This document shows, piece by piece, positions 2,616 through 37,782 of a stretch of DNA of 64,000 nt. Position numbers and translations under genes: made by a program. This DNA is from a virus: the IMG/VR virus record IMGVR_UViG_3300049893_003686. The stretch is one strand, 5' to 3'. The notes under the pieces were generated by a model, which was given only the letters and a program-made list of their open reading frames with translations, did no database searches and had not been told where the DNA came from. Each line of letters begins with the position of its first letter. Positions within the stretch are counted from its first letter, which is position 1.

Positions 2616-2846
2616 ATGGAGAGCGACGAGATGATTTCTTATACGGCAATTTATTGGTATGGTGAAGATTCTAATACTTATGGGGTTTCTAGGGTTTCTG
2701 GGGATTATAGGGCTTCTTGGGCTTCTGGGACTTCTTGGGATTCTGCGGCTTCTAGTGTTTCTAGGGCTTCTAAGGTTTATAGGGCTTCTTGGGTTTCTGG
2801 GGTTTTTTGGGGTTATGTAATCTCCAGAGCAAGGAGTGGTCAATGA
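2616..2846 (+). CDS. Array-B unit ORF (Gly/Ser/Ala/Val-rich low-complexity small protein).
   Basis: Conserved linker ATG (2631, or upstream ATG at 2616). TGA overlaps the next ATG at 2843-2846. Confidence 0.3.
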   Translation: MESDEMISYTAIYWYGEDSNTYGVSRVSGDYRASWASGTSWDSAASSVSRASKVYRASWVSGVFWGYVISRARSGQ

Positions 2847-3031
2847 TCTCTCATGCGACAGTTTATCTTTATGGTGGAGCTTATTGGACTTCTAAGGCTT
2901 CTAAGGCTTCTGGGATTTCTAAGGCCTCTTGGATTTCTAAGGCTTCTGGGGTTTCTAGGGTTTCTATGGCTTCTAGGGCTTCTGGGGGTTATGGGAGCTA
3001 TATAGTCTCCAGAGCAAGAGGTGGTAGATGA
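2843..3031 (+). CDS. Array-B unit ORF ([12 protein letters not shown] + (K/R)AS repeats).
   Basis: ATGA overlaps at both ends. SD-like AAGGAGTGG upstream. Confidence 0.3.
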
Positions 3032-3279
3032 TTTCTCATGTGGGAGTTTATTTTTATTCTGTGGCTTCTTTGGTTTCTGGGGCTTCTTTGGTTTCTAGGG
3101 CCTCTAGGGCTTCTAGGGCTTCTAGGGCTTCTGTGGCTTCTGGGGCTTCTGGGGCTTTTAGGATTTCTGGGGTTTCTGGGGCTTCTTTGGTTTCTATGAC
3201 TTCTGGGGTTTCTGGGGCTTCTGGGGTTTCTGGGGCTTCTGGGGTTTCTGGGGTTTCTGGGGCAAGAGGTGGCAGATGA
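3028..3279 (+). CDS. Array-B unit ORF ([11 protein letters not shown] + GAS/GVS repeats).
   Basis: ATGA overlaps at both ends. Confidence 0.3.
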
Positions 3280-3551
3280 TTTCTCATGTGGGAGTTTATT
3301 TTTATTCTGGGGCTTCTTGGGTTTCTTGGGTTTCTGGGGTTTCTGTGACTTCTTGGGTTTCTAGGGTTTCTGGGGTTTCTGGGGTTTCTGTGACTTCTGG
3401 GGTTTCTGGGGTTTCTGGGGCTTCTGGGGTTTCTAGGGCTTCTAAGGCCTCTATGGTTTCTGGGGCAAGAGGTGGTAGATTATTTCTCATGTGGGAGTTT
3501 ATTGGTACGGCGAGGTTACTGGAGCGGACCTATTCGTATAGGAATAGATAA
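3276..3551 (+). CDS. Array-B terminal unit ORF, which reads out into unique sequence.
   Basis: Begins with an ATGA overlap. The next linker is mutated (ATTA), so the ORF continues into unique sequence. Confidence 0.25.
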
Positions 3552-17278: not shown

Positions 17279-18409
17279 ATGAAATTCCCTATTATCGAGC
17301 ACACAATTTTACTTACAATAGCAGGCTCTAGGAGTTACGGTATGCACAAAAGTGACTCCGATATAGACCTAAAAGGGATAGCCATCCCTCCTATAGATTC
17401 CTATATTGGAGTTTTACCAAATTTCGAACAAGTAGAGTCATCAGAAGCAATGATGGTATATTATCCTCTACTATCGAATGATGAGAAAGATATTTCAGAT
17501 AAATATAAGCTTGAAGGGGTTATATATGATTTGCGTAAATTCATACGACTGGCATCTGGTTCAAATCCCAATATCTTAGATGTATTATTTTGCGATGATG
17601 AGCACGTCAGGTTCTCATCAAAGGCAGGAGATATCATAAGGGCTAGCAGAGATCTATTCATATCTGCACAGGCTAAGCATACATATTCTGGTTATGCAAC
17701 GGCGCAATTTAAGCGCATTAAGACTCATAGGGGATATCTGCTAAATGCTCCAAAGACAGAGCCAGACAGGAGTGAGTTCGGTCTATCAAAGGACCACTGC
17801 ATTCCACGTGCCCAGGTAGAGGCATCTTTATCAGAGATTAATAAGAAACTTGATGAGTGGGAATTAGATCTTAGCTCTATAGATTCTGAGTCTGACAGAA
17901 TGTCGATATTAAATAATATTGCACAAGTACTATCAGAAATAATGTCAACAACTGACTCTAAATGGAAGAGCTCCGCTAGAAACATCGGCTATGGCGATAA
18001 CCTTATTGAAATTCTAGACAAGGAGCGTAGATTTAGACAGGCTAAGAACGAATGGGATAAATATCAATATTGGAAGAAGGGGCGAAACTCAGCACGAGCG
18101 AAACTAGAAGAAAAATACGGGTATGATACCAAGCACGCTTCTCACTTAGTTAGATTAATGAGGATGTGTTATGAGATTTTAGTAGATGGCAAGGTCAATG
18201 TCAATCGCAAGAAAATAGATGCCGATGAATTAGTTGCGATTCGAGATGGCTCATGGAGCTACGATAAGCTAGAGGAATTCTTTATAACGATGGATAATAA
18301 ATGCAGCGAGCTGTATAATAGTAAGTCATATAGCATTCCACATAGGGTAGATATGAGTGCGATAAATGCATTGTGCGTACAACTCATCTCCGATAAGTAC
18401 AAAATGTGA
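17279..18409 (+). CDS. Pol-beta-superfamily nucleotidyltransferase domain protein.
   Basis: GSRSYGMHKSDSDIDLKG matches the GS...D.D minimal nucleotidyltransferase motif. The C-terminal region is unassigned. Confidence 0.5.
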   Translation: MKFPIIEHTILLTIAGSRSYGMHKSDSDIDLKGIAIPPIDSYIGVLPNFEQVESSEAMMVYYPLLSNDEKDISDKYKLEGVIYDLRKFIRLASGSNPNILDVLFCDDEHVRFSSKAGDIIRASRDLFISAQAKHTYSGYATAQFKRIKTHRGYLLNAPKTEPDRSEFGLSKDHCIPRAQVEASLSEINKKLDEWELDLSSIDSESDRMSILNNIAQVLSEIMSTTDSKWKSSARNIGYGDNLIEILDKERRFRQAKNEWDKYQYWKKGRNSARAKLEEKYGYDTKHASHLVRLMRMCYEILVDGKVNVNRKKIDADELVAIRDGSWSYDKLEEFFITMDNKCSELYNSKSYSIPHRVDMSAINALCVQLISDKYKM

Positions 18410-25567: not shown

Positions 25568-25643
25568 GCGCCTGTAGCTCAGCGGATAGAGTACTTGTCT
25601 TCTAAATAAGGTGTCGTAGGTTCGAATCCTACCAGGCGCGCCA
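25568..25643 (+). tRNA. tRNA-Arg (anticodon TCT), CCA-encoded.
   Basis: Hand-folded. Acceptor GCGCCTG/CAGGCGC. D stem GCTC/GAGT. Anticodon stem CTTGT/ATAAG with loop CTTCTAA (U33, TCT, A37). T-arm GTAGG-TTCGAAT-CCTAC. Discriminator G then CCA. Confidence 0.85.
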
Positions 25644-25708: not shown

Positions 25709-25792
25709 GGGCCAGTAGACGCGCTCCGCTCATAACGGAGTAAGGGTAATTTGGTTCTGAAAATGTGGGTTCAAGTCCCACCTGGCCCACCA
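25709..25792 (+). tRNA. Aberrant tRNA-like gene, copy 1. It has a CAU anticodon stem-loop, a canonical T-arm and acceptor, and encoded CCA. The D-arm region is only 8 nt and there is a 24-nt extra region.
   Basis: Acceptor GGGCCAG/CTGGCCC followed by A and CCA. T-arm GTGGG-TTCAAGT-CCCAC. Stem CTCCG/CGGAG with loop CTCATAA. A byte-identical copy lies at 42249-42332. Confidence 0.45.
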
Positions 25793-25936: not shown

Positions 25937-26560
25937 ATGCTTAGAGCTGAAGGTAAGCTGCCTAGAGATGTATACGTAGCTTGTTCTGGCGGCGTAGACA
26001 GTATGGCAGTGCTTGCGTTTTTAATGCGCCGAGAAGTTAAGCCACAAGTAGTCTACTTTAATCATAGGACTGATCATTCAGAAAAAGCAGAAGAACATGT
26101 ACGTACATTCTGCACTAAGCACGCCCTCAATCTTACCATAGGAACTATTCTTCGTGATCGCCTTAGCCGTGAGTCTAAAGAGGAATTTTGGCGAAACGAG
26201 AGATATAAATTCCTGCACGGACTATCTCTACCAGTAATTACAGCGCATAACTTAGACGATTGTATTGAAACATGGATCTTCTCTTCATTGCATGGAGAAG
26301 GAAAAATGATTCCATACAGAAATCGAAATGTAATTAGACCATTTAGACAAACACATAAGGCAGAGTTTATCAGATGGTGCACGAAGAATAACATCCCATG
26401 GATAGAGGACGAGTCAAATAAGAATATATTATTTGCACGCAATAGAATCAGACATGCACTTATGCCAGAAGTTCTAAAAATCAATCCTGGAATTTCTAAA
26501 GTAATTAGAAAGAAAATCTTGGCAGAAAGTGATATGCATAGGCTTTCCCCGCCACTCTAA
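25937..26560 (+). CDS. tRNA(Ile)-lysidine synthetase-like PP-loop ATPase (TilS N-terminal domain only, 207 aa).
   Basis: PP-loop SGGVDSMAV and TilS-type AHNLDDCIETWI (HxxDDxxET) motif. No C-terminal QueC-like Cys cluster. Confidence 0.7.
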   Translation: MLRAEGKLPRDVYVACSGGVDSMAVLAFLMRREVKPQVVYFNHRTDHSEKAEEHVRTFCTKHALNLTIGTILRDRLSRESKEEFWRNERYKFLHGLSLPVITAHNLDDCIETWIFSSLHGEGKMIPYRNRNVIRPFRQTHKAEFIRWCTKNNIPWIEDESNKNILFARNRIRHALMPEVLKINPGISKVIRKKILAESDMHRLSPPL

Positions 26561-28430: not shown

Positions 28431-28510
28431 GAGAATTAATCTAGATATAAGGTCACATTAACTATAACTATAGCGTCATGCTGGCGTATATAGGAATAAT
28501 CGGAGAAAAG

Positions 28511-30802
28511 ATGAAGAAATATATTTTCGCAACGCTACTGCTCGCAACTACAGCGGCAGCATCAAATAGCGATAAATCTCATCATGAAAAGGTGGAGATT
28601 TGTCATAAGGATCATCATGAAATTAGTGTCGACGAGCATGCTGTCGAGGCGCATATTGATCACGGCGATTGTCTCGGGACATGTCCATGCGCCCCATTGC
28701 CAGAATGCCAATCTGATGCTGATTGTACTAACGATCTATTCTGTGATGGCAACGAATCATGCCTCAATGGAAGCTGTGTGGCAGGAGAGTCTCCGTGTGA
28801 GCACAGCTTATCATGTGACGAAGTGGAAGACCTATGTGTGCAACAGCCAGATTGCATTACCGATAGCGATTGTGACGACGGAGTATTTTGTAATAATCAA
28901 GAATTATGTTTAAATGGCTCCTGTGTTTCTTTTGGAGATAGTCCATGCCCAGACTACATTTGTGTAGAAAAGTATGCCATATGCGTATTGCCACCAGAGT
29001 GTCATGTAGATGACGATTGTACGAATGGACTATTTTGCGACGGGCACGAATTATGTTCAAATGGAGCATGCGTATCCAATGTACTTCCATGCCCTGAAAC
29101 AGAACAGTGTGACGAAGAATCTGATGCTTGTTTTAATGCAGGTGAGGGTGAAGGAGAAGGCGAGGGAGAAGGTGAGGGTGAAGGAGAAGGCGAGGGAGAA
29201 GGTGAGGGTGAAGGAGAAGGCGAGGGAGAAGGTGAGGGTGAAGGAGAAGGCGAGGGAGAAGGTGAAGGCGAGGGTGAAGGTGCCGAGAAAACAAACTTAT
29301 TTGTCTCAGGGTCAGGGATTTTTTCATGCTCTGAGTCATCATCTCCAGACCTGTTTATACTTGCACTATTCTTGCCAGCACTGCTAATATCACAAAAGCG
29401 TAGGGCACTAGTAGCAACCTTAGTAATTGGACTATTTTCATTCTCTGCTTCTGCAGAAGGATTAAATCGTGTAGGTGGCCCAACATCATTTAACGATTCC
29501 CCGCAAGCATCATCAGCGGATCTACTGCCTAACCTTACATTGCAGACTGGTCTAAACTTAGATTACTCGCATGCTCCATTGGTGCTCAGAGACGTAGCTT
29601 TTATTAAGCATAGTGATTTGGTCGAACACCAATTCTCAAGTAGCATCAATGCAGCAATGGGATTTCGCGATGTCGTGCAATTAGATCTAGCATTGCCCAT
29701 TTCAGTCGCAACAGGACAGGGTTTAAATTTGGATGGAACACCATCAGCTGGTCTTCAGGATATGACAGCTGGTGTTAGATTGCGGTTGACTGACAGCAAA
29801 GCACCATTACGCACTGCCCTTAGCCTTAAAGGTACGATGCCAACATCGCTATTGTCATTTAATGGAATGCCAACATTTGGAGAGGTATTCCCGACGCTTA
29901 CCCCAGGAGTCTTACTTACTGCCGGCAATGAGTTGGCATCAGTTACACTAAATACAGGATACACTATTCGTATTCCTAAAAATGTAGCGGATCTTCAAAT
30001 GGGACATACTGTAAATGCAGCTGTAGGTGGACAACTGTGCTTACTTAAAGATAGCTTGTGGTTAGTCGGAGATGTTGGCACAAGTCTATCAGCACAAGGC
30101 TTGTTTACAAATCGATTATTTATGCCAGTAGAGGCGACACTTGGCTTTAAAGGAAAGCACGGTCCTTTCTATGGAATGGTAGCCGCTGGCTCTGGGCTAT
30201 TGCCCGACGTTGGGACCCCTGATGTGCGCGTTTTGGCTTCATTAGGTCTTAATTTTGACTTTGCAACTAAGCAGAAAGCACGTACCACTAGCAAGTTAGT
30301 TACAGAGCATAATCCTCTGCCACCTCCACTTGATTCCGATGGCGATGGGATCCTTGATCAAGATGATAAGTGTCCAAATGATCCAGAGGATTTTGATGGA
30401 TTTGAGGATTCAGATGGGTGCCCAGAGCAAGAGTTAGTAGTAATAGAGTCAGAAAAAATCATATTGTTATCCCCAGTGTACTTTTTCTTTGACTCAGATC
30501 AAATTAAACCAGAAAGCTTTCAAGTATTGAATGATGTGGCAACTGTACTAAAAGAGCATACTGAGATTAAGCTATTGTCTATTGAGGGGCATGCCTCAGC
30601 AGAAGGTGAATTGGATTATAACCAAGCACTTAGTGAACGCCGAGCTTTGGCAATAGTAAAATTCCTCCAAAAGGCAGGAGTTGCTACAGAACGACTTGTT
30701 GCACTCGGGCATGGAGAGAATAATCCGGCTGAATCAAATAAGACAAAAGCTGGACGTGAAAAAAATCGCCGCGTAGAGTTTCGTATTCTAGAAAAGCAGT
30801 GA
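28511..30802 (+). CDS. Large secreted OmpA-family cell-envelope protein. It has N-terminal Cys-rich modules, a Glu-Gly repeat, thrombospondin-type-3-like Ca-binding repeats and a C-terminal OmpA peptidoglycan-binding domain.
   Basis: Signal peptide MKKYIFATLLLATTAAAS with RBS GGAGAA. Four DCTNDLFCDGxExCxNGSCV modules. (EG)n tract. DSDGDGILDQDDKCPNDPEDFDGFEDSDGCPE. OmpA box NQALSERRALAIVKFL...RRVEF. Confidence 0.8.
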   Translation: MKKYIFATLLLATTAAASNSDKSHHEKVEICHKDHHEISVDEHAVEAHIDHGDCLGTCPCAPLPECQSDADCTNDLFCDGNESCLNGSCVAGESPCEHSLSCDEVEDLCVQQPDCITDSDCDDGVFCNNQELCLNGSCVSFGDSPCPDYICVEKYAICVLPPECHVDDDCTNGLFCDGHELCSNGACVSNVLPCPETEQCDEESDACFNAGEGEGEGEGEGEGEGEGEGEGEGEGEGEGEGEGEGEGEGEGEGEGEGAEKTNLFVSGSGIFSCSESSSPDLFILALFLPALLISQKRRALVATLVIGLFSFSASAEGLNRVGGPTSFNDSPQASSADLLPNLTLQTGLNLDYSHAPLVLRDVAFIKHSDLVEHQFSSSINAAMGFRDVVQLDLALPISVATGQGLNLDGTPSAGLQDMTAGVRLRLTDSKAPLRTALSLKGTMPTSLLSFNGMPTFGEVFPTLTPGVLLTAGNELASVTLNTGYTIRIPKNVADLQMGHTVNAAVGGQLCLLKDSLWLVGDVGTSLSAQGLFTNRLFMPVEATLGFKGKHGPFYGMVAAGSGLLPDVGTPDVRVLASLGLNFDFATKQKARTTSKLVTEHNPLPPPLDSDGDGILDQDDKCPNDPEDFDGFEDSDGCPEQELVVIESEKIILLSPVYFFFDSDQIKPESFQVLNDVATVLKEHTEIKLLSIEGHASAEGELDYNQALSERRALAIVKFLQKAGVATERLVALGHGENNPAESNKTKAGREKNRRVEFRILEKQ
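29141..29282 (+). repeat. In-frame simple repeat (GAGGGTGAAGGAGAAGGCGAGGGAGAAGGT)n encoding an (EG)~24 tract within the OmpA-family gene.
   Basis: Directly visible. Four or more copies of a 30-nt unit. Confidence 0.85.
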
Positions 30803-30857: not shown

Positions 30858-31628
30858 ATGAGCAGTAATGAACTTGGTTTGAAGATTAAAAGTTTATATG
30901 AAAATCGTACACGACTCTTGCTAGATCAAGATGAGTATATAATTATCAGAATTGATGGTAAGAATTTTTCAAGATATACTCGTAAGCTCAAAAAGCCATT
31001 CGATCAGGATCTTGCAGATGATTTCGACCAAACTGCTAAGATATTGTGCTCTCAAATCATGGGAGCACATATGGCATATACTCAAAGTGATGAGATAAGT
31101 ATTGTAGTTTCGAATTTTAGTTCTTCAGGTAAGGACATCTGGTTTAACGGAAATATACAAAAAATAGTTTCAGTATCATGTTCAATGGCAACAGCATCAT
31201 TTAATGATTCAAGAATAAAGCGAAGTGTTGATTATAAAGGTGGAATTTTTGATTCTAGGGTATTTACAATACCTGATCGCTCATCAGTATTAGAGTATTT
31301 AACCTGGAGACAAAAGGATGCAAGTAGAAATTCCATTTCCATGATTGCAAGAAGCGTAATGAGTAGTAAAGAAATGCATGGAATTTCTACTGGCAAAATA
31401 ATAGAGATTTTAAAAGATAGAGGAATAGACCTCAAAATATATAATCAAGGTCTATTGTATGGAAGAATTATTTTCAAAGAAAAATTTACAGTAACCGCTA
31501 CTCATAGTGAATACGGGATTGCTCAAAATTCTGATTCACTCAGAACAAGATGGGTAGCTAAGACAGCACCAAATTTCTCTAAAGAAGACATTTCCATAGA
31601 ATTGATTCCAGAAAGAAAGCTTTCTTGA
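30858..31628 (+). CDS. Hypothetical protein.
   Basis: 256-aa ORF. Confidence 0.55.
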   Translation: MSSNELGLKIKSLYENRTRLLLDQDEYIIIRIDGKNFSRYTRKLKKPFDQDLADDFDQTAKILCSQIMGAHMAYTQSDEISIVVSNFSSSGKDIWFNGNIQKIVSVSCSMATASFNDSRIKRSVDYKGGIFDSRVFTIPDRSSVLEYLTWRQKDASRNSISMIARSVMSSKEMHGISTGKIIEILKDRGIDLKIYNQGLLYGRIIFKEKFTVTATHSEYGIAQNSDSLRTRWVAKTAPNFSKEDISIELIPERKLS

Positions 31629-36039: not shown

Positions 36040-36435
36040 ATGCTGTTCAAGTACTTAACTTTGGATCCAATGGATAATTTGCTTGGGTCATTTGGGCGTA
36101 CATATAACTCAACCCACAATAAGCTACCAGCGAATATTTCATCTCAACAAGATAAATACGAAATAAGCATCCTTATTCCAGGATTTACCAAAGACGAGAT
36201 TAAGTTAACTGTAAGTGGTAATACTATGCTAATTTTAGCTGAAAAATCAACCATTTCTGATGTGGAATATTTCCATAAAGAATTTGCAATTGAAACAGTA
36301 GAGCGTAAAATATCATTACCTTCTTCAGTTAAGAAGGATGCCATTTCAGCATCATATAATGAAGGAATTCTGACCATTACACTCCCACACTCTAACTTAA
36401 GAAATGAGTCTTCCATTGAAATTCAAGTTTGCTAA
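36040..36435 (+). CDS. Small heat-shock protein (Hsp20/alpha-crystallin family).
   Basis: Alpha-crystallin domain YEISILIPGFTKDEIKLTVSGNTMLILAEK ... FAIETVERKISLPSSVKKDAISASYNEGILTITLP. RBS GGAGGT lies before ATG 36040. Confidence 0.75.
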   Translation: MLFKYLTLDPMDNLLGSFGRTYNSTHNKLPANISSQQDKYEISILIPGFTKDEIKLTVSGNTMLILAEKSTISDVEYFHKEFAIETVERKISLPSSVKKDAISASYNEGILTITLPHSNLRNESSIEIQVC

Positions 36436-37300
36436 CAATCACCATAATGGTATAGATTACTGTATCATCTATCATGCTAACTGTGCCGACGGCTTTGCGG
36501 CTGCTTGGGCCATATGGAAAGTGCTAGGGGACCAGCTGGCCAGCTATCATCCGGCAGCATACGGCTCAGAGCCACCTGAAGAAATAAAGGATAGGCACGT
36601 AGTTATAGTAGATTTTTCATACTCTCGTAAGGTTCTTGAAGAAATCAAGAGCAAGGCAAAAAGCCTGTTAGTTCTCGATCATCATAAAAGTGCTGAAGAG
36701 AGTTTGCGTGATTTCGAGGGAGCTCATTTTGATATGAATCGCAGCGGGGCCGGTATGGCATGGGATTATTTCCATGAAAAGCCCCGTCCGCCACTCATTA
36801 ATTATGTAGAGGATCGAGACTTATGGAACTGGAAGCTGCCATATGCTAAAGAACTAACCGCTATGTTTGAAATTGATAATCAATCATTTCAAGATCTCTC
36901 TGAATTTAATAGCAAGTTAGAGTCACCTGAAGAATTTCAAGTCTTGGTAACTAAGGGGTCTGCTGTCCTAGAATATAAGAATTCTAGAGTTAAAATGCTG
37001 TCCTCCAAACCTTATATGGTAGACATATCCAGTATATGTATGTTAGATGACCTGACATTGCAGATTCCATGTGTCAATTCTCAACTTTTTCAAAGTGAAA
37101 TTGGTAATGTTTTGGCTCAAAAGCATCCAATGGCAATAGTTTGGTATCGCGCAGAAGACGGATCATATAGACACTCATTGCGTTCGAATGGCAAAATTGA
37201 TTGTAGCAAGATTGCTCAATTTTGGGGAGGCGGGGGTCATGCAAATGCAGCAGGATTTACAACGCAAGAACCCTTAGTTAGAATGGATGATAAAAGCTAA
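36404..37300 (+). CDS. DHH-DHHA1 family phosphoesterase (NrnA/RecJ-like).
   Basis: Motifs ANCADGFAAAWAIW, VVIVDFS and LVLDHHKS (DHH). GGGGHANAAG (DHHA1). Confidence 0.75.
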   Translation: MSLPLKFKFANNHHNGIDYCIIYHANCADGFAAAWAIWKVLGDQLASYHPAAYGSEPPEEIKDRHVVIVDFSYSRKVLEEIKSKAKSLLVLDHHKSAEESLRDFEGAHFDMNRSGAGMAWDYFHEKPRPPLINYVEDRDLWNWKLPYAKELTAMFEIDNQSFQDLSEFNSKLESPEEFQVLVTKGSAVLEYKNSRVKMLSSKPYMVDISSICMLDDLTLQIPCVNSQLFQSEIGNVLAQKHPMAIVWYRAEDGSYRHSLRSNGKIDCSKIAQFWGGGGHANAAGFTTQEPLVRMDDKS

Positions 37301-37412
37301 GCTTGCATATAATTTATGGGTGATGGACCCACAAGCCATCAGTTGGTCGCTAAAAGACTCGGCAAGGGCTGCCGCTATAATAGCCTATATTTATTAGTTT
37401 AATAGCTTATTA

Positions 37413-37484
37413 AACCACCCACAAGCAGATATATACATATGCCTTAATTTTAAGGTAGTATTATGTACTGCTTGTGGGTGGGTT
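37413..37484 (+). other. Long near-perfect inverted repeat (candidate structured RNA or terminator) in the intergenic region upstream of the Ro60 gene.
   Basis: AACCACCCACAAGCAG (37413-37428) pairs with CTGCTTGTGGGTGGGTT (37468-37484), giving 16 bp with one bulge and a 39-nt loop. A related CCCACAAGCC lies at 37326. Confidence 0.4.
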
Positions 37485-37506
37485 ATTAATAACTATATAC
37501 TGATAT

Positions 37507-37782
37507 ATGGCAATTACTCCATTAGAGTTGCAAACTCTTAGTACAGAGCAGATATCGAGCATCTCTCGGGCACGCTCTATAATAGACGCAGAGTTACGAT
37601 TAAAAGTCGACGAAGCATTTCCTATAAAGATTAGGCAGGGTATAATTGACTTTATTTTTAAAGAAAATGCAATGGTGCTCGATGCTCTGATATCAGAGTA
37701 CCGCGCAGCAGGATGGGAAGTGGTTACTTATTTGAGCGACAGTCAAGGTACATGGCTCAGCTTCTATCCTAGTTCTACGTGA
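37507..37782 (+). CDS. Hypothetical protein.
   Basis: 91-aa ORF between the hairpin and the Ro60 gene. Confidence 0.45.
   Translation: MAITPLELQTLSTEQISSISRARSIIDAELRLKVDEAFPIKIRQGIIDFIFKENAMVLDALISEYRAAGWEVVTYLSDSQGTWLSFYPSST

Follow-up and report, generated by a model that had tools for sequence, protein, structure and literature searches.

Two identical D-armless tRNA(CAU) genes in a viral genome, one of them beside a TilS N-domain gene, belong to a phage tRNA family with a proposed rearranged core

We analysed a 64,000-nucleotide (nt) stretch of viral DNA (hereafter the window; IMG/VR record IMGVR_UViG_3300049893_003686) that carries two byte-identical copies of an 84-nt tRNA-like gene with a CAU anticodon, GGGCCAGTAGACGCGCTCCGCTCATAACGGAGTAAGGGTAATTTGGTTCTGAAAATGTGGGTTCAAGTCCCACCTGGCCCACCA, at positions 25709–25792 (copy 1) and 42249–42332 (copy 2), both on the + strand. 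Identity extends 0 nt to the left of the 84-mer and 3 nt (TTT) to its right, and an exact repeat of 87 nt recurring 16.5 kb away excludes chance. Copy 1 lies 65 nt downstream of a canonical tRNA-Arg(UCU) gene (25568–25643, + strand; found by ARAGORN and scoring 67.7 bits with the Rfam tRNA model), with which it forms a two-gene tRNA cluster for AGA and AUA codons. A gene that starts 145 nt downstream of copy 1 (25937–26560, + strand) encodes a 207-amino-acid (aa) protein corresponding to the N-terminal catalytic (PP-loop) domain of TilS. Copy 2 lies between an SspB-like gene (41803–42201) and an open reading frame (ORF; 42347–42616), and its surroundings are unrelated to the flanks of copy 1. 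A weak sigma-70-like match (TTAACG-17-CATAAT, 42213–42241) ends 8 nt before copy 2, which may possibly have a promoter of its own; promoter and terminator scans of the region returned nothing exceeding shuffle expectation, including the number of sigma-70-like matches.

An initial annotation made from the letters of this DNA had described identical 84-nt copies with identity ending at the element edges, a 7-bp acceptor stem, a discriminator A, encoded CCA, a T arm, a CAU arm, a gap of 8 nt between acceptor and anticodon stems and no D hairpin; apart from the three shared nucleotides on the right, that description holds in full. In copy 1 (all parts on the + strand), the 5′ acceptor strand GGGCCAG (25709–25715) pairs with CTGGCCC (25782–25788), and the pairs include C4:G69 and C5:G68. 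The 8-nt 5′ connector UAGACGCG (25716–25723), in which U8 and A9 are invariant across the family described below, contains the strand C12-G13-C14 (25720–25722; both placed by covariance model (CM) alignment) and leads directly into the anticodon arm CUCCG-CUCAUAA-CGGAG (25724–25740, with CAU at 25731–25733; Rfam and family-model alignments). Between this arm and the T arm GUGGG-UUCAAGU-CCCAC (25765–25781; Rfam tRNA and family alignments) lies a 24-nt region, UAAGGGUAAUUUGGUUCUGAAAAU, which ends in AAAAU before the T stem. It contains the strand GGG (25744–25746) and, at 25747–25764, a D-loop-like segment UAAUUUGGUU with equivalents of A14, A15, G18 and G19, followed by a linker CUGAAAAU that ends in a U48-like base. 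The discriminator A73 and the encoded CCA, read from the sequence, complete the element (25789–25792). Its minimum-free-energy fold has −30.8 kcal/mol (z = −2.4).

The Rfam tRNA model (RF00005) matches both copies at 42.1 bits, above the gathering score of 29, with the D arm deleted (3 nt stand where the model has 13 D-arm positions) and a 21-nt insertion in the variable region. Standard ARAGORN calls neither copy and finds only the canonical tRNA-Arg(UCU) in the window; its -mt mode calls a Met(cat) gene at the element, only with shifted boundaries. The element had been described as non-canonical: it does indeed lack a D arm and falls outside the standard cloverleaf, but it is not a one-off, because it belongs to a large phage family.

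We searched IMG/VR with a pattern that combined a CAU loop with the T loop of the element placed far downstream of it, which returned a few elements of the same odd layout, all with GUAAUU(U)GGUU in the ‘extra’ region, a motif that resembles a D loop (A14, R15, G18, G19). Another pattern, which asked only for the D-loop-like motif near a T loop, matched 82 viral stretches, for which a rough estimate of the chance expectation is a handful; about 60 of the 82 are 77–82-nt elements of one architecture. A CM termed R1, built from 46 training rows, scores the window element at 59.6 bits, the window sequence being one of those rows. R1 also found members with variant motifs (GUAAUAGG, GUAACUGG, AUAAUGG, GUAGUGG and others) and many more members in metagenomes. 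Patterns and R1 together gave 97 distinct sequences, nearly all from viral or metagenomic contigs. A scan of 185,579 species genomes yielded at least one member (L293) among the 120 matches listed, so the family appears to be mainly viral.

Members are present in about 40 GenBank phage records: 37 are Streptomyces phages of the BE cluster, and the others include the crAss-like phage cr130_1, Kehishuvirus ‘tikkala’ (OQ198717.1, at about 95582) and one further virus. Every one of these records leaves the matching stretch unannotated. Streptomyces phage Mildred21 (NC_042008.1) has four members. An unannotated Ile(GAU) member lies between the genes for a CCA-adding enzyme and FtsK (L329 3495–3571, at 73703–73779 of NC_042008.1); another (L330 14368–14443, equal to 91367–91442 of NC_042008.1) is annotated as ‘tRNA-Phe(gaa)’, and its 7-nt loop CUUCGAA reads UCG (Arg). 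The remaining two, at L330 9380–9454 and 17858–17934 (86379–86453 and 94857–94933 of NC_042008.1), comprise one annotated as ‘tRNA-OTHER’ (UCU) and one unannotated with ACG. Over the part of this record that we examined (70209–112000, roughly 42 kb), the annotation lists Arg(cct) as the sole Arg tRNA. ARAGORN properly detects 3 of 70 members and most score below the Rfam tRNA threshold; the class has probably been overlooked because gene finders miss its members or assign them wrongly. Another unusual type of phage tRNA(CAU), with a normal D arm and a long variable arm, occurs on two IMG/VR contigs: the T arm of one (L049) is that of the window element, and the other (L047) is initiator-like (C1×A72).

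The family shares a fold made of the acceptor stem, the anticodon arm, the T arm and an additional helix that we call helix 2. In a MAFFT alignment of 46 members, 92.8% of the cells in these helices are paired, compared with 60.9% after shuffling, and covariation is 0.827 compared with 0.204, with none of 500 shuffles as high and slid controls at 0.08–0.20. Two CM-based alignments agree with the covariation in the MAFFT alignment, and all seven acceptor pairs covary in the family. Helix 2 forms between the three connector nucleotides that follow U8-A9-N and three nucleotides beyond the anticodon arm and a spacer, which is AGAAA in the 77-nt subtype. Taken alone in the MAFFT alignment, it is 89.9% paired (62.4% shuffled) with a covariation of 0.61 (0.14 shuffled; 0 of 500 shuffles as high). 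Across the 97 sequences, its first pair is C-G in 93, A-U in 2 and U-A in 1; its second is C-G in 36, G-C in 27, U-A in 19, A-U in 10 and U-G in 4; and its third is C-G in 45, G-C in 30, A-U in 3, U-A in 2 and G-U in 1, with 16 unpaired. These unpaired cases are mostly from the 78–82-nt subtype, which has a shifted register and an AA bulge.

Directly 3′ of helix 2 follows U-A-R-n-n-(n)-G-G and then a linker whose last base ahead of the T stem is U, or C in members where R is G. The equivalent of the U8/A14 pair is kept in all 97 members, and the equivalent of the 15/48 pair is A-U in 92, G-C in 2 and something else in 3. The window element has the motif (UAAUUUGGUU), U8, A9 and the U48-like base. 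The 3′ strand of helix 2 and the motif would correspond to canonical positions 10–21 and the 5′ strand with the anticodon arm to 22–43, as though the two segments had been swapped. The resulting stack has five layers of anticodon stem, one mismatch layer, three helix 2 pairs and a U·U or A-U layer, matching the canonical 5 + 1 + 4. Given swapped segments with an equal layer count, the L shape and the elbow contacts could form by a different path of the chain. The 24-nt region had initially been drawn as a hairpin, ATTT-GGTTCTG-AAAT; it can be drawn, but it is 72.4% paired compared with 72.3% in shuffled alignments, it shows no covariation, and every change at its second pair in the family alignment breaks the pairing. 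The region instead carries the 3′ strand of helix 2 and the relocated D-loop-like motif.

Some observations count against this fold. RNAalifold, applied to the MAFFT alignment, recovers the three classical helices and not helix 2, so that the case for helix 2 comes from covariation and not from predicted energy. In the window element, helix 2 is weak, with two of three pairs (C12-G38 and C14-G36 flanking a G13×G37 mismatch) and one extra connector nucleotide; the mismatch is common to the window and to the ortholog described below and is not compensated. Much of the conservation of the D-loop-like motif was imposed by the search patterns themselves, a bias that is lessened in part by the members found by CM rather than by pattern, which also retain UAA/Gnn(n)GG.

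We compared the element with known departures from the cloverleaf. D-armless mitochondrial tRNAs (metazoan mt-tRNA-Ser(AGY) and nematode tRNAs; PMC7609411) resemble it in having three helices and a short connector between acceptor and anticodon stems. In those tRNAs, however, a loop on the 5′ side takes the place of the D arm, the variable region has just 3–5 nt and the elbow between G18G19 and the T loop is lost or loosened, whereas the element combines its 8-nt connector with a long 24-nt strand on the 3′ side that carries UAAnnGG with its conserved GG, has an extra covarying helix and a canonical T arm and acceptor, and occurs in phage genomes; it is therefore not of the mitochondrial type. 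Non-standard cloverleaves are known from phages and metagenomes (PMC5389517), and class II tRNAs (Leu, Ser and Tyr) and allo-tRNAs share with the element the additional nucleotides between anticodon and T arms (PMC5389517). They keep a D arm and a self-contained variable hairpin, whereas in the element the extra segment stands in place of the D arm and base-pairs with the 5′ connector, and the acceptor/T configuration remains 7/5. Permuted and split tRNA genes, as in Cyanidioschyzon merolae and Nanoarchaeota, have an altered order of segments, and processing restores the canonical mature tRNA. In the element, the covarying helices arise from the order as encoded, and no processing signals are evident.

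An ortholog of the element that was not part of the training set is present on two metagenome contigs, L146 (30 kb) and L169, and scores 66.4 bits with R1. It differs from the window element at 4 of 81 positions (95% identity): A11 is replaced by U, the D-loop-like motif has one U fewer, and U17-A31 in the anticodon stem is replaced by C-G, a compensatory change. The flanks of the ortholog cannot be aligned with those of the window except for a TCATAT leader, which matches copy 1. On both contigs, a gene for a homologous TilS N-domain protein (54% aa identity) lies about 100 nt downstream of the ortholog, and 11 other window proteins have no homolog on the two contigs. The tRNA(CAU) and TilS genes therefore form a conserved module, in that, of the window proteins compared, TilS alone has a homolog beside the ortholog. 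Judging from this synteny, copy 1 came first and copy 2 arose later by duplication.

These comparisons bear on two alternatives. The element could be the pseudogene of a tRNA, decaying after loss of the D arm and duplicated by chance, a reading that would fit its rejection by ARAGORN and the helix 2 mismatch in the window lineage. It is, however, already largely refuted, and we consider it highly improbable: the copies are identical despite unrelated flanks, the ortholog is 95% identical between unalignable flanks and carries a compensatory change, and the element matches a 97-member family with strong covariation. The degenerate pseudo-tRNA without conservation in relatives that the initial annotation had envisaged as a possible outcome is thus not what emerged. 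The two copies could also be direct repeats of the attL/attR type, marking where a mobile element had entered a tRNA gene, given that they are in the same orientation, 16.5 kb apart, and coincide with a tRNA gene. Against this, the repeat takes in the complete mature tRNA, first base to CCA, and not just a 3′ portion, Pfam searches found no integrase or recombinase among 30 ORFs of the interval and its flanks, and at the ortholog locus the gene is present once, again beside TilS; of all the readings discussed here, we give this one the least credence. An idea linking the element to transfer-messenger RNA (tmRNA) and the SspB-like gene was also rejected: the element has G3:C70 and not G3:U70, it has an anticodon arm, and it has no tag frame. 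ARAGORN and Rfam found no tmRNA in the window.

The gene at 25937–26560 had initially been called TilS-like, and profile searches bear this out: the protein matches PF01171 (1.8e-32) and TIGR02432 (123.4 bits, cut-off 93.6), its best match in the Protein Data Bank is the N domain only of Aquifex TilS (1wy5), and it has the SGGVDS motif and lacks CTD1 and CTD2. At 207 aa, it compares with roughly 310–460 aa for TilS chains of solved structure. Homologs of equal length are present on nine viral contigs, and phage TilS genes have been reported earlier in MIJ3/PA5oct with no function assigned (PMC6892783). Known type I and type II TilS enzymes read the tRNA through C-terminal domains (PMC12514573); by its domain content, the window protein is a minimal TilS type beyond these two classes. 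Its presumed role is that of a lysidine synthetase acting on the CAU tRNA.

The element shares with bacterial tRNA-Ile2 the CUCAUAA loop, A73, C4:G69, C5:G68, the T loop UUCAAGU and a nearby gene for the TilS catalytic domain, and differs from it in having no D hairpin and in the position of its D-loop-like motif, 3′ of the anticodon arm. According to Ikeuchi et al., as cited in PMC12514573, Escherichia coli TilS recognises its tRNA chiefly by the acceptor pairs C4:G69 and C5:G68. Among the 35 CAU members of the family, C4:G69 is present in 32, Y5:R68 in 34 and A73 in all, and the identity pairs are not conserved in GAU (11 of 25) or UAU (10 of 28) members. In the ORFs of the window, AUA makes up 40% of Ile codons (30.4 per 1,000), which agrees with the initial statement that it is frequent, and AGA makes up 37% of Arg codons; AUA and AGA are exactly the codons that the only two tRNA species of the window would serve.

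Anticodons across the 97 members are CAU in 35 (a count inflated because the metagenome pattern demanded CAU), UAU in 28, GAU in 25, Arg anticodons (UCU, ACG, UCG and CCU) in 8 and Val in 1. All Ile-type members have A73, U33 and R37. Members usually sit inside phage tRNA arrays, and copy 1 likewise follows a tRNA-Arg(UCU) gene. One array (L081) has 25 canonical tRNAs for 19 amino acids, none of them Ile, and a GAU family member between tRNA-Trp and tRNA-Pro; two others (L064, with 15 specificities, and L105, with 16) also have no canonical Ile tRNA and do have Ile members of the family. Elsewhere, family and canonical tRNAs carry different Ile anticodons: canonical GAU with family CAU (L021 and L148), canonical UAU with family GAU (L101) and canonical GAU with family UAU (L090 and L128). 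Such arrays fit working tRNAs and would be hard to square with decoys or pseudogenes. Two further features of these arrays are worth recording. A GOLLD RNA (L064 3961–4386, 250 bits) lies beside a 20-gene phage tRNA array that holds two rearranged Ile tRNAs, and in an array that also holds a rearranged Ile(GAU), ARAGORN calls a suppressor-type tRNA (tta, ‘Stop’; L059 2608–2680).

On this evidence, we propose that both copies are probably functional phage tRNA genes of a rewired-core class, with the CAU of the element read as that of a tRNA-Ile2 served by the adjacent TilS N-domain protein. The Ile2 assignment with its TilS link, made in the initial annotation, gains support from the conserved synteny, from C4:G69, C5:G68 and A73, from the Ile relatives and from AUA use. 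Several facts pull the other way. By itself, a CAU anticodon is also compatible with Met identity, and the window TilS lacks both C-terminal domains with which known TilS enzymes read the tRNA body. The 3 kb around the TilS genes closest to that of the window (L001–L003) contain no rearranged-core tRNA, a scan near the relatives L001–L009 found none either, and one of these relatives (L004) has the order Arg(TCT)-CAU-CAU-TilS with both CAU tRNAs canonical. Family members are also redundant with a canonical tRNA of the same anticodon in Mildred21, L062 and L293, so plain codon supply fails to explain the unusual fold.

The CAU anticodon raises the alternative of a rearranged-core elongator tRNA-Met, in which unmodified CAU would read AUG and the TilS neighbour would be a coincidence or act on another tRNA. 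The loop CUCAUAA is common to elongator tRNA-Met, the absent C-terminal domains are those known to tell Ile2 from Met, and the TilS relatives without a rearranged tRNA nearby also suit this alternative. Yet the adjacency of tRNA and TilS genes is kept across TilS proteins that are 54% identical, the acceptor pairs cited as determinants of E. coli TilS are conserved specifically in CAU members, and the non-CAU relatives are overwhelmingly Ile. In addition, several arrays (L154, L197) hold a CAU family member together with a canonical tRNA-Met, and AUA is very frequent in a window that has no other AUA decoder. We therefore regard a Met tRNA as unlikely.

A non-decoding role deserves similar scrutiny: the element could be a tRNA mimic, acting as a decoy or sponge that draws off a host nuclease directed at tRNA, or another tRNA-binding factor, or as a Y-RNA-like partner of Ro60. 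The gene at 37853–39460, initially taken to be a Ro60 ortholog, does encode a Ro60 protein (TROVE and vWA_Ro60 domains), and with Thg1-like, RlaP and DHH genes it belongs to a set of RNA repair and surveillance genes nearby that could suit a mimic, as could the unusual fold and the redundancy of some members; Mildred21 likewise has Ro60 as well as family members. YrlA and other bacterial Y RNAs bound by Ro60 (Rsr) have a tRNA-like module of T arm and D loop and end in a Ro-binding stem, with no anticodon or CCA. The element is like them in having such a module and a Ro60 gene in the same genome, but in place of a Ro-binding stem its ends make up an acceptor stem carrying A73-CCA, and the Rfam Y RNA and YrlA models gave no match up to E = 10 locally and E = 0.5 across the window. 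No family member lies within 10 kb of any of 10 viral Ro60 loci, and Ro60 homologs are absent from all 68 family loci examined. Ro60 genes often adjoin phage tRNA arrays, which explains the co-occurrence in the window and in Mildred21. Moreover, U33 and R37 are kept and the anticodons stay within consistent Ile and Arg sets that supply what the arrays lack, neither of which a decoy needs. The Ro60/Y-RNA alternative raised initially thus finds no backing, and we think a mimic about as improbable as a Met tRNA.

Between the end of the DHH gene (37300) and the Ro60 gene lies a nearly perfect hairpin of about 130 nt (37378–37516). The segment 37301–37520 folds with −74.9 kcal/mol (z = −5.9) and gives only weak miRNA-precursor-like Rfam matches, on both strands. 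This hairpin could be a better Y-RNA-like candidate than the 84-nt element, or a regulatory or terminator element.

Returning to the tRNA-Ile2 reading, we envisage the following. The element would be expressed and would fold with no D hairpin: after U8-A9, a short strand (CGC here) would enter the anticodon stem directly, a spacer would follow the anticodon hairpin, and GGG would close a 3-bp helix 2 stacked on the anticodon stem. The GG of UAAUUUGGUU would dock on the T loop, and the linker with its U48-like end would lead into the normal T arm and acceptor, so that the U8-A14, R15-Y48 and G18/G19–T-loop contacts might form with altered chain connectivity. The transcript would be processed like a tRNA, the adjacent phage TilS N-domain protein, and possibly host TilS too, would convert C34 to lysidine, and the modified tRNA would be charged by isoleucyl-tRNA synthetase (IleRS) and read AUA on the ribosome, with two gene copies raising the dose.

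At the level of the family, the proposal is that phages of very different hosts (Streptomyces phages, Bacteroides and crAss-like phages, and freshwater and marine huge phages) share a translation-competent class of rewired Ile and Arg tRNAs, which we rate as evenly balanced between true and false. In such tRNAs the strands of the D stem would have changed sides, with a D-like helix enclosing the anticodon arm and the D loop shifted to the side of the variable region. Genes for tRNA repair and maturation abound near the members, namely Thg1-like, RlaP and Ro60 genes in the window and genes for a CCA-adding enzyme, RNA ligase and PNK in Mildred21. That the rewired class is kept as an escape from tRNA-directed host nucleases and defences, or from phage-induced tRNA decay, is a speculation to which we give only a modest chance.

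The window probably comes from a huge phage. Homologs of its TilS and Ro60 proteins lie on IMG/VR contigs that reach 441 kb, and the sole DNA-level relative in GenBank phages is an uncultured phage of 642 kb. When the locus and the 84-mer were compared with GenBank phages by BLAST, only generic T-arm or tRNA-Arg matches came back, and an exact-match search of IMG/VR with the 3′ half of the element returned nothing. In an independent assembly (Logan SRR35532387) the TilS protein is identical and the contig begins about 170 nt upstream of the TilS gene, inside the element, which is consistent with an assembly break at the repeat. Sixty of the 66 long ORFs in the window are on the + strand, and no phage structural genes were found in it. 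The genes around the copies encode the TilS protein, CDA-fold deaminases, a Thg1-like protein, a DHH phosphoesterase, Ro60, IF3, an SspB-like protein and FtsK, and NAMPT, DHODH, DNA ligase, ClpB and RlaP are encoded farther away. Host-like genes for RNA metabolism and translation are found at 17279–18409, 30858–31628, 36404–37300 and 41162–42201 (RlaP nucleotidyltransferase, Thg1-like 3′–5′ polymerase, DHH/DHHA1 phosphoesterase, IF3 and SspB-like adaptor).

The window also carries other repeats. Long arrays of the 9-nt unit GGGCTTCTN (up to 84 copies), with higher-order periods of 18, 27 and 185 nt, occupy 1–950 and 2677–3466 and are overlain by short overlapping ORFs on the + strand. Two repeats of 81–114 nt lie 570 nt apart (1602–1715 and 2172–2284), and within a 774-aa OmpA-domain ORF (28478–30802) a repeat with periods of 12 and 18 nt (29110–29300) encodes a Gly-Glu-rich (GEGEGE...) tract.

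D-armless tRNAs are generally taken to be peculiar to mitochondria. Phages go unmentioned in a 2020 review of non-canonical tRNAs, and a 2024 paper describes all known bacterial tRNAs as cloverleaves. Rfam 15 has no dedicated family for a rearranged-core tRNA, and we found no description of the rewired fold among the open-access papers searched; the phage class is apparently undescribed, with some lesser likelihood that the fold has been reported elsewhere. A rewired phage tRNA would be very surprising to a specialist. As the class is present in cultured phages (the Streptomyces BE cluster and Kehishuvirus ‘tikkala’), it is directly testable. If the proposal is right, the tRNA core would tolerate a different strand topology in a bacterial translation system, and the family would offer natural, possibly orthogonal scaffolds for tRNA engineering. 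It would also expose a blind spot of annotation, as seen in the few members detected by ARAGORN, the many below the Rfam threshold and the mis-annotation in Mildred21, and would offer a concrete way to ask why phages encode a minimal TilS as well as Ile and Arg decoders of their own.

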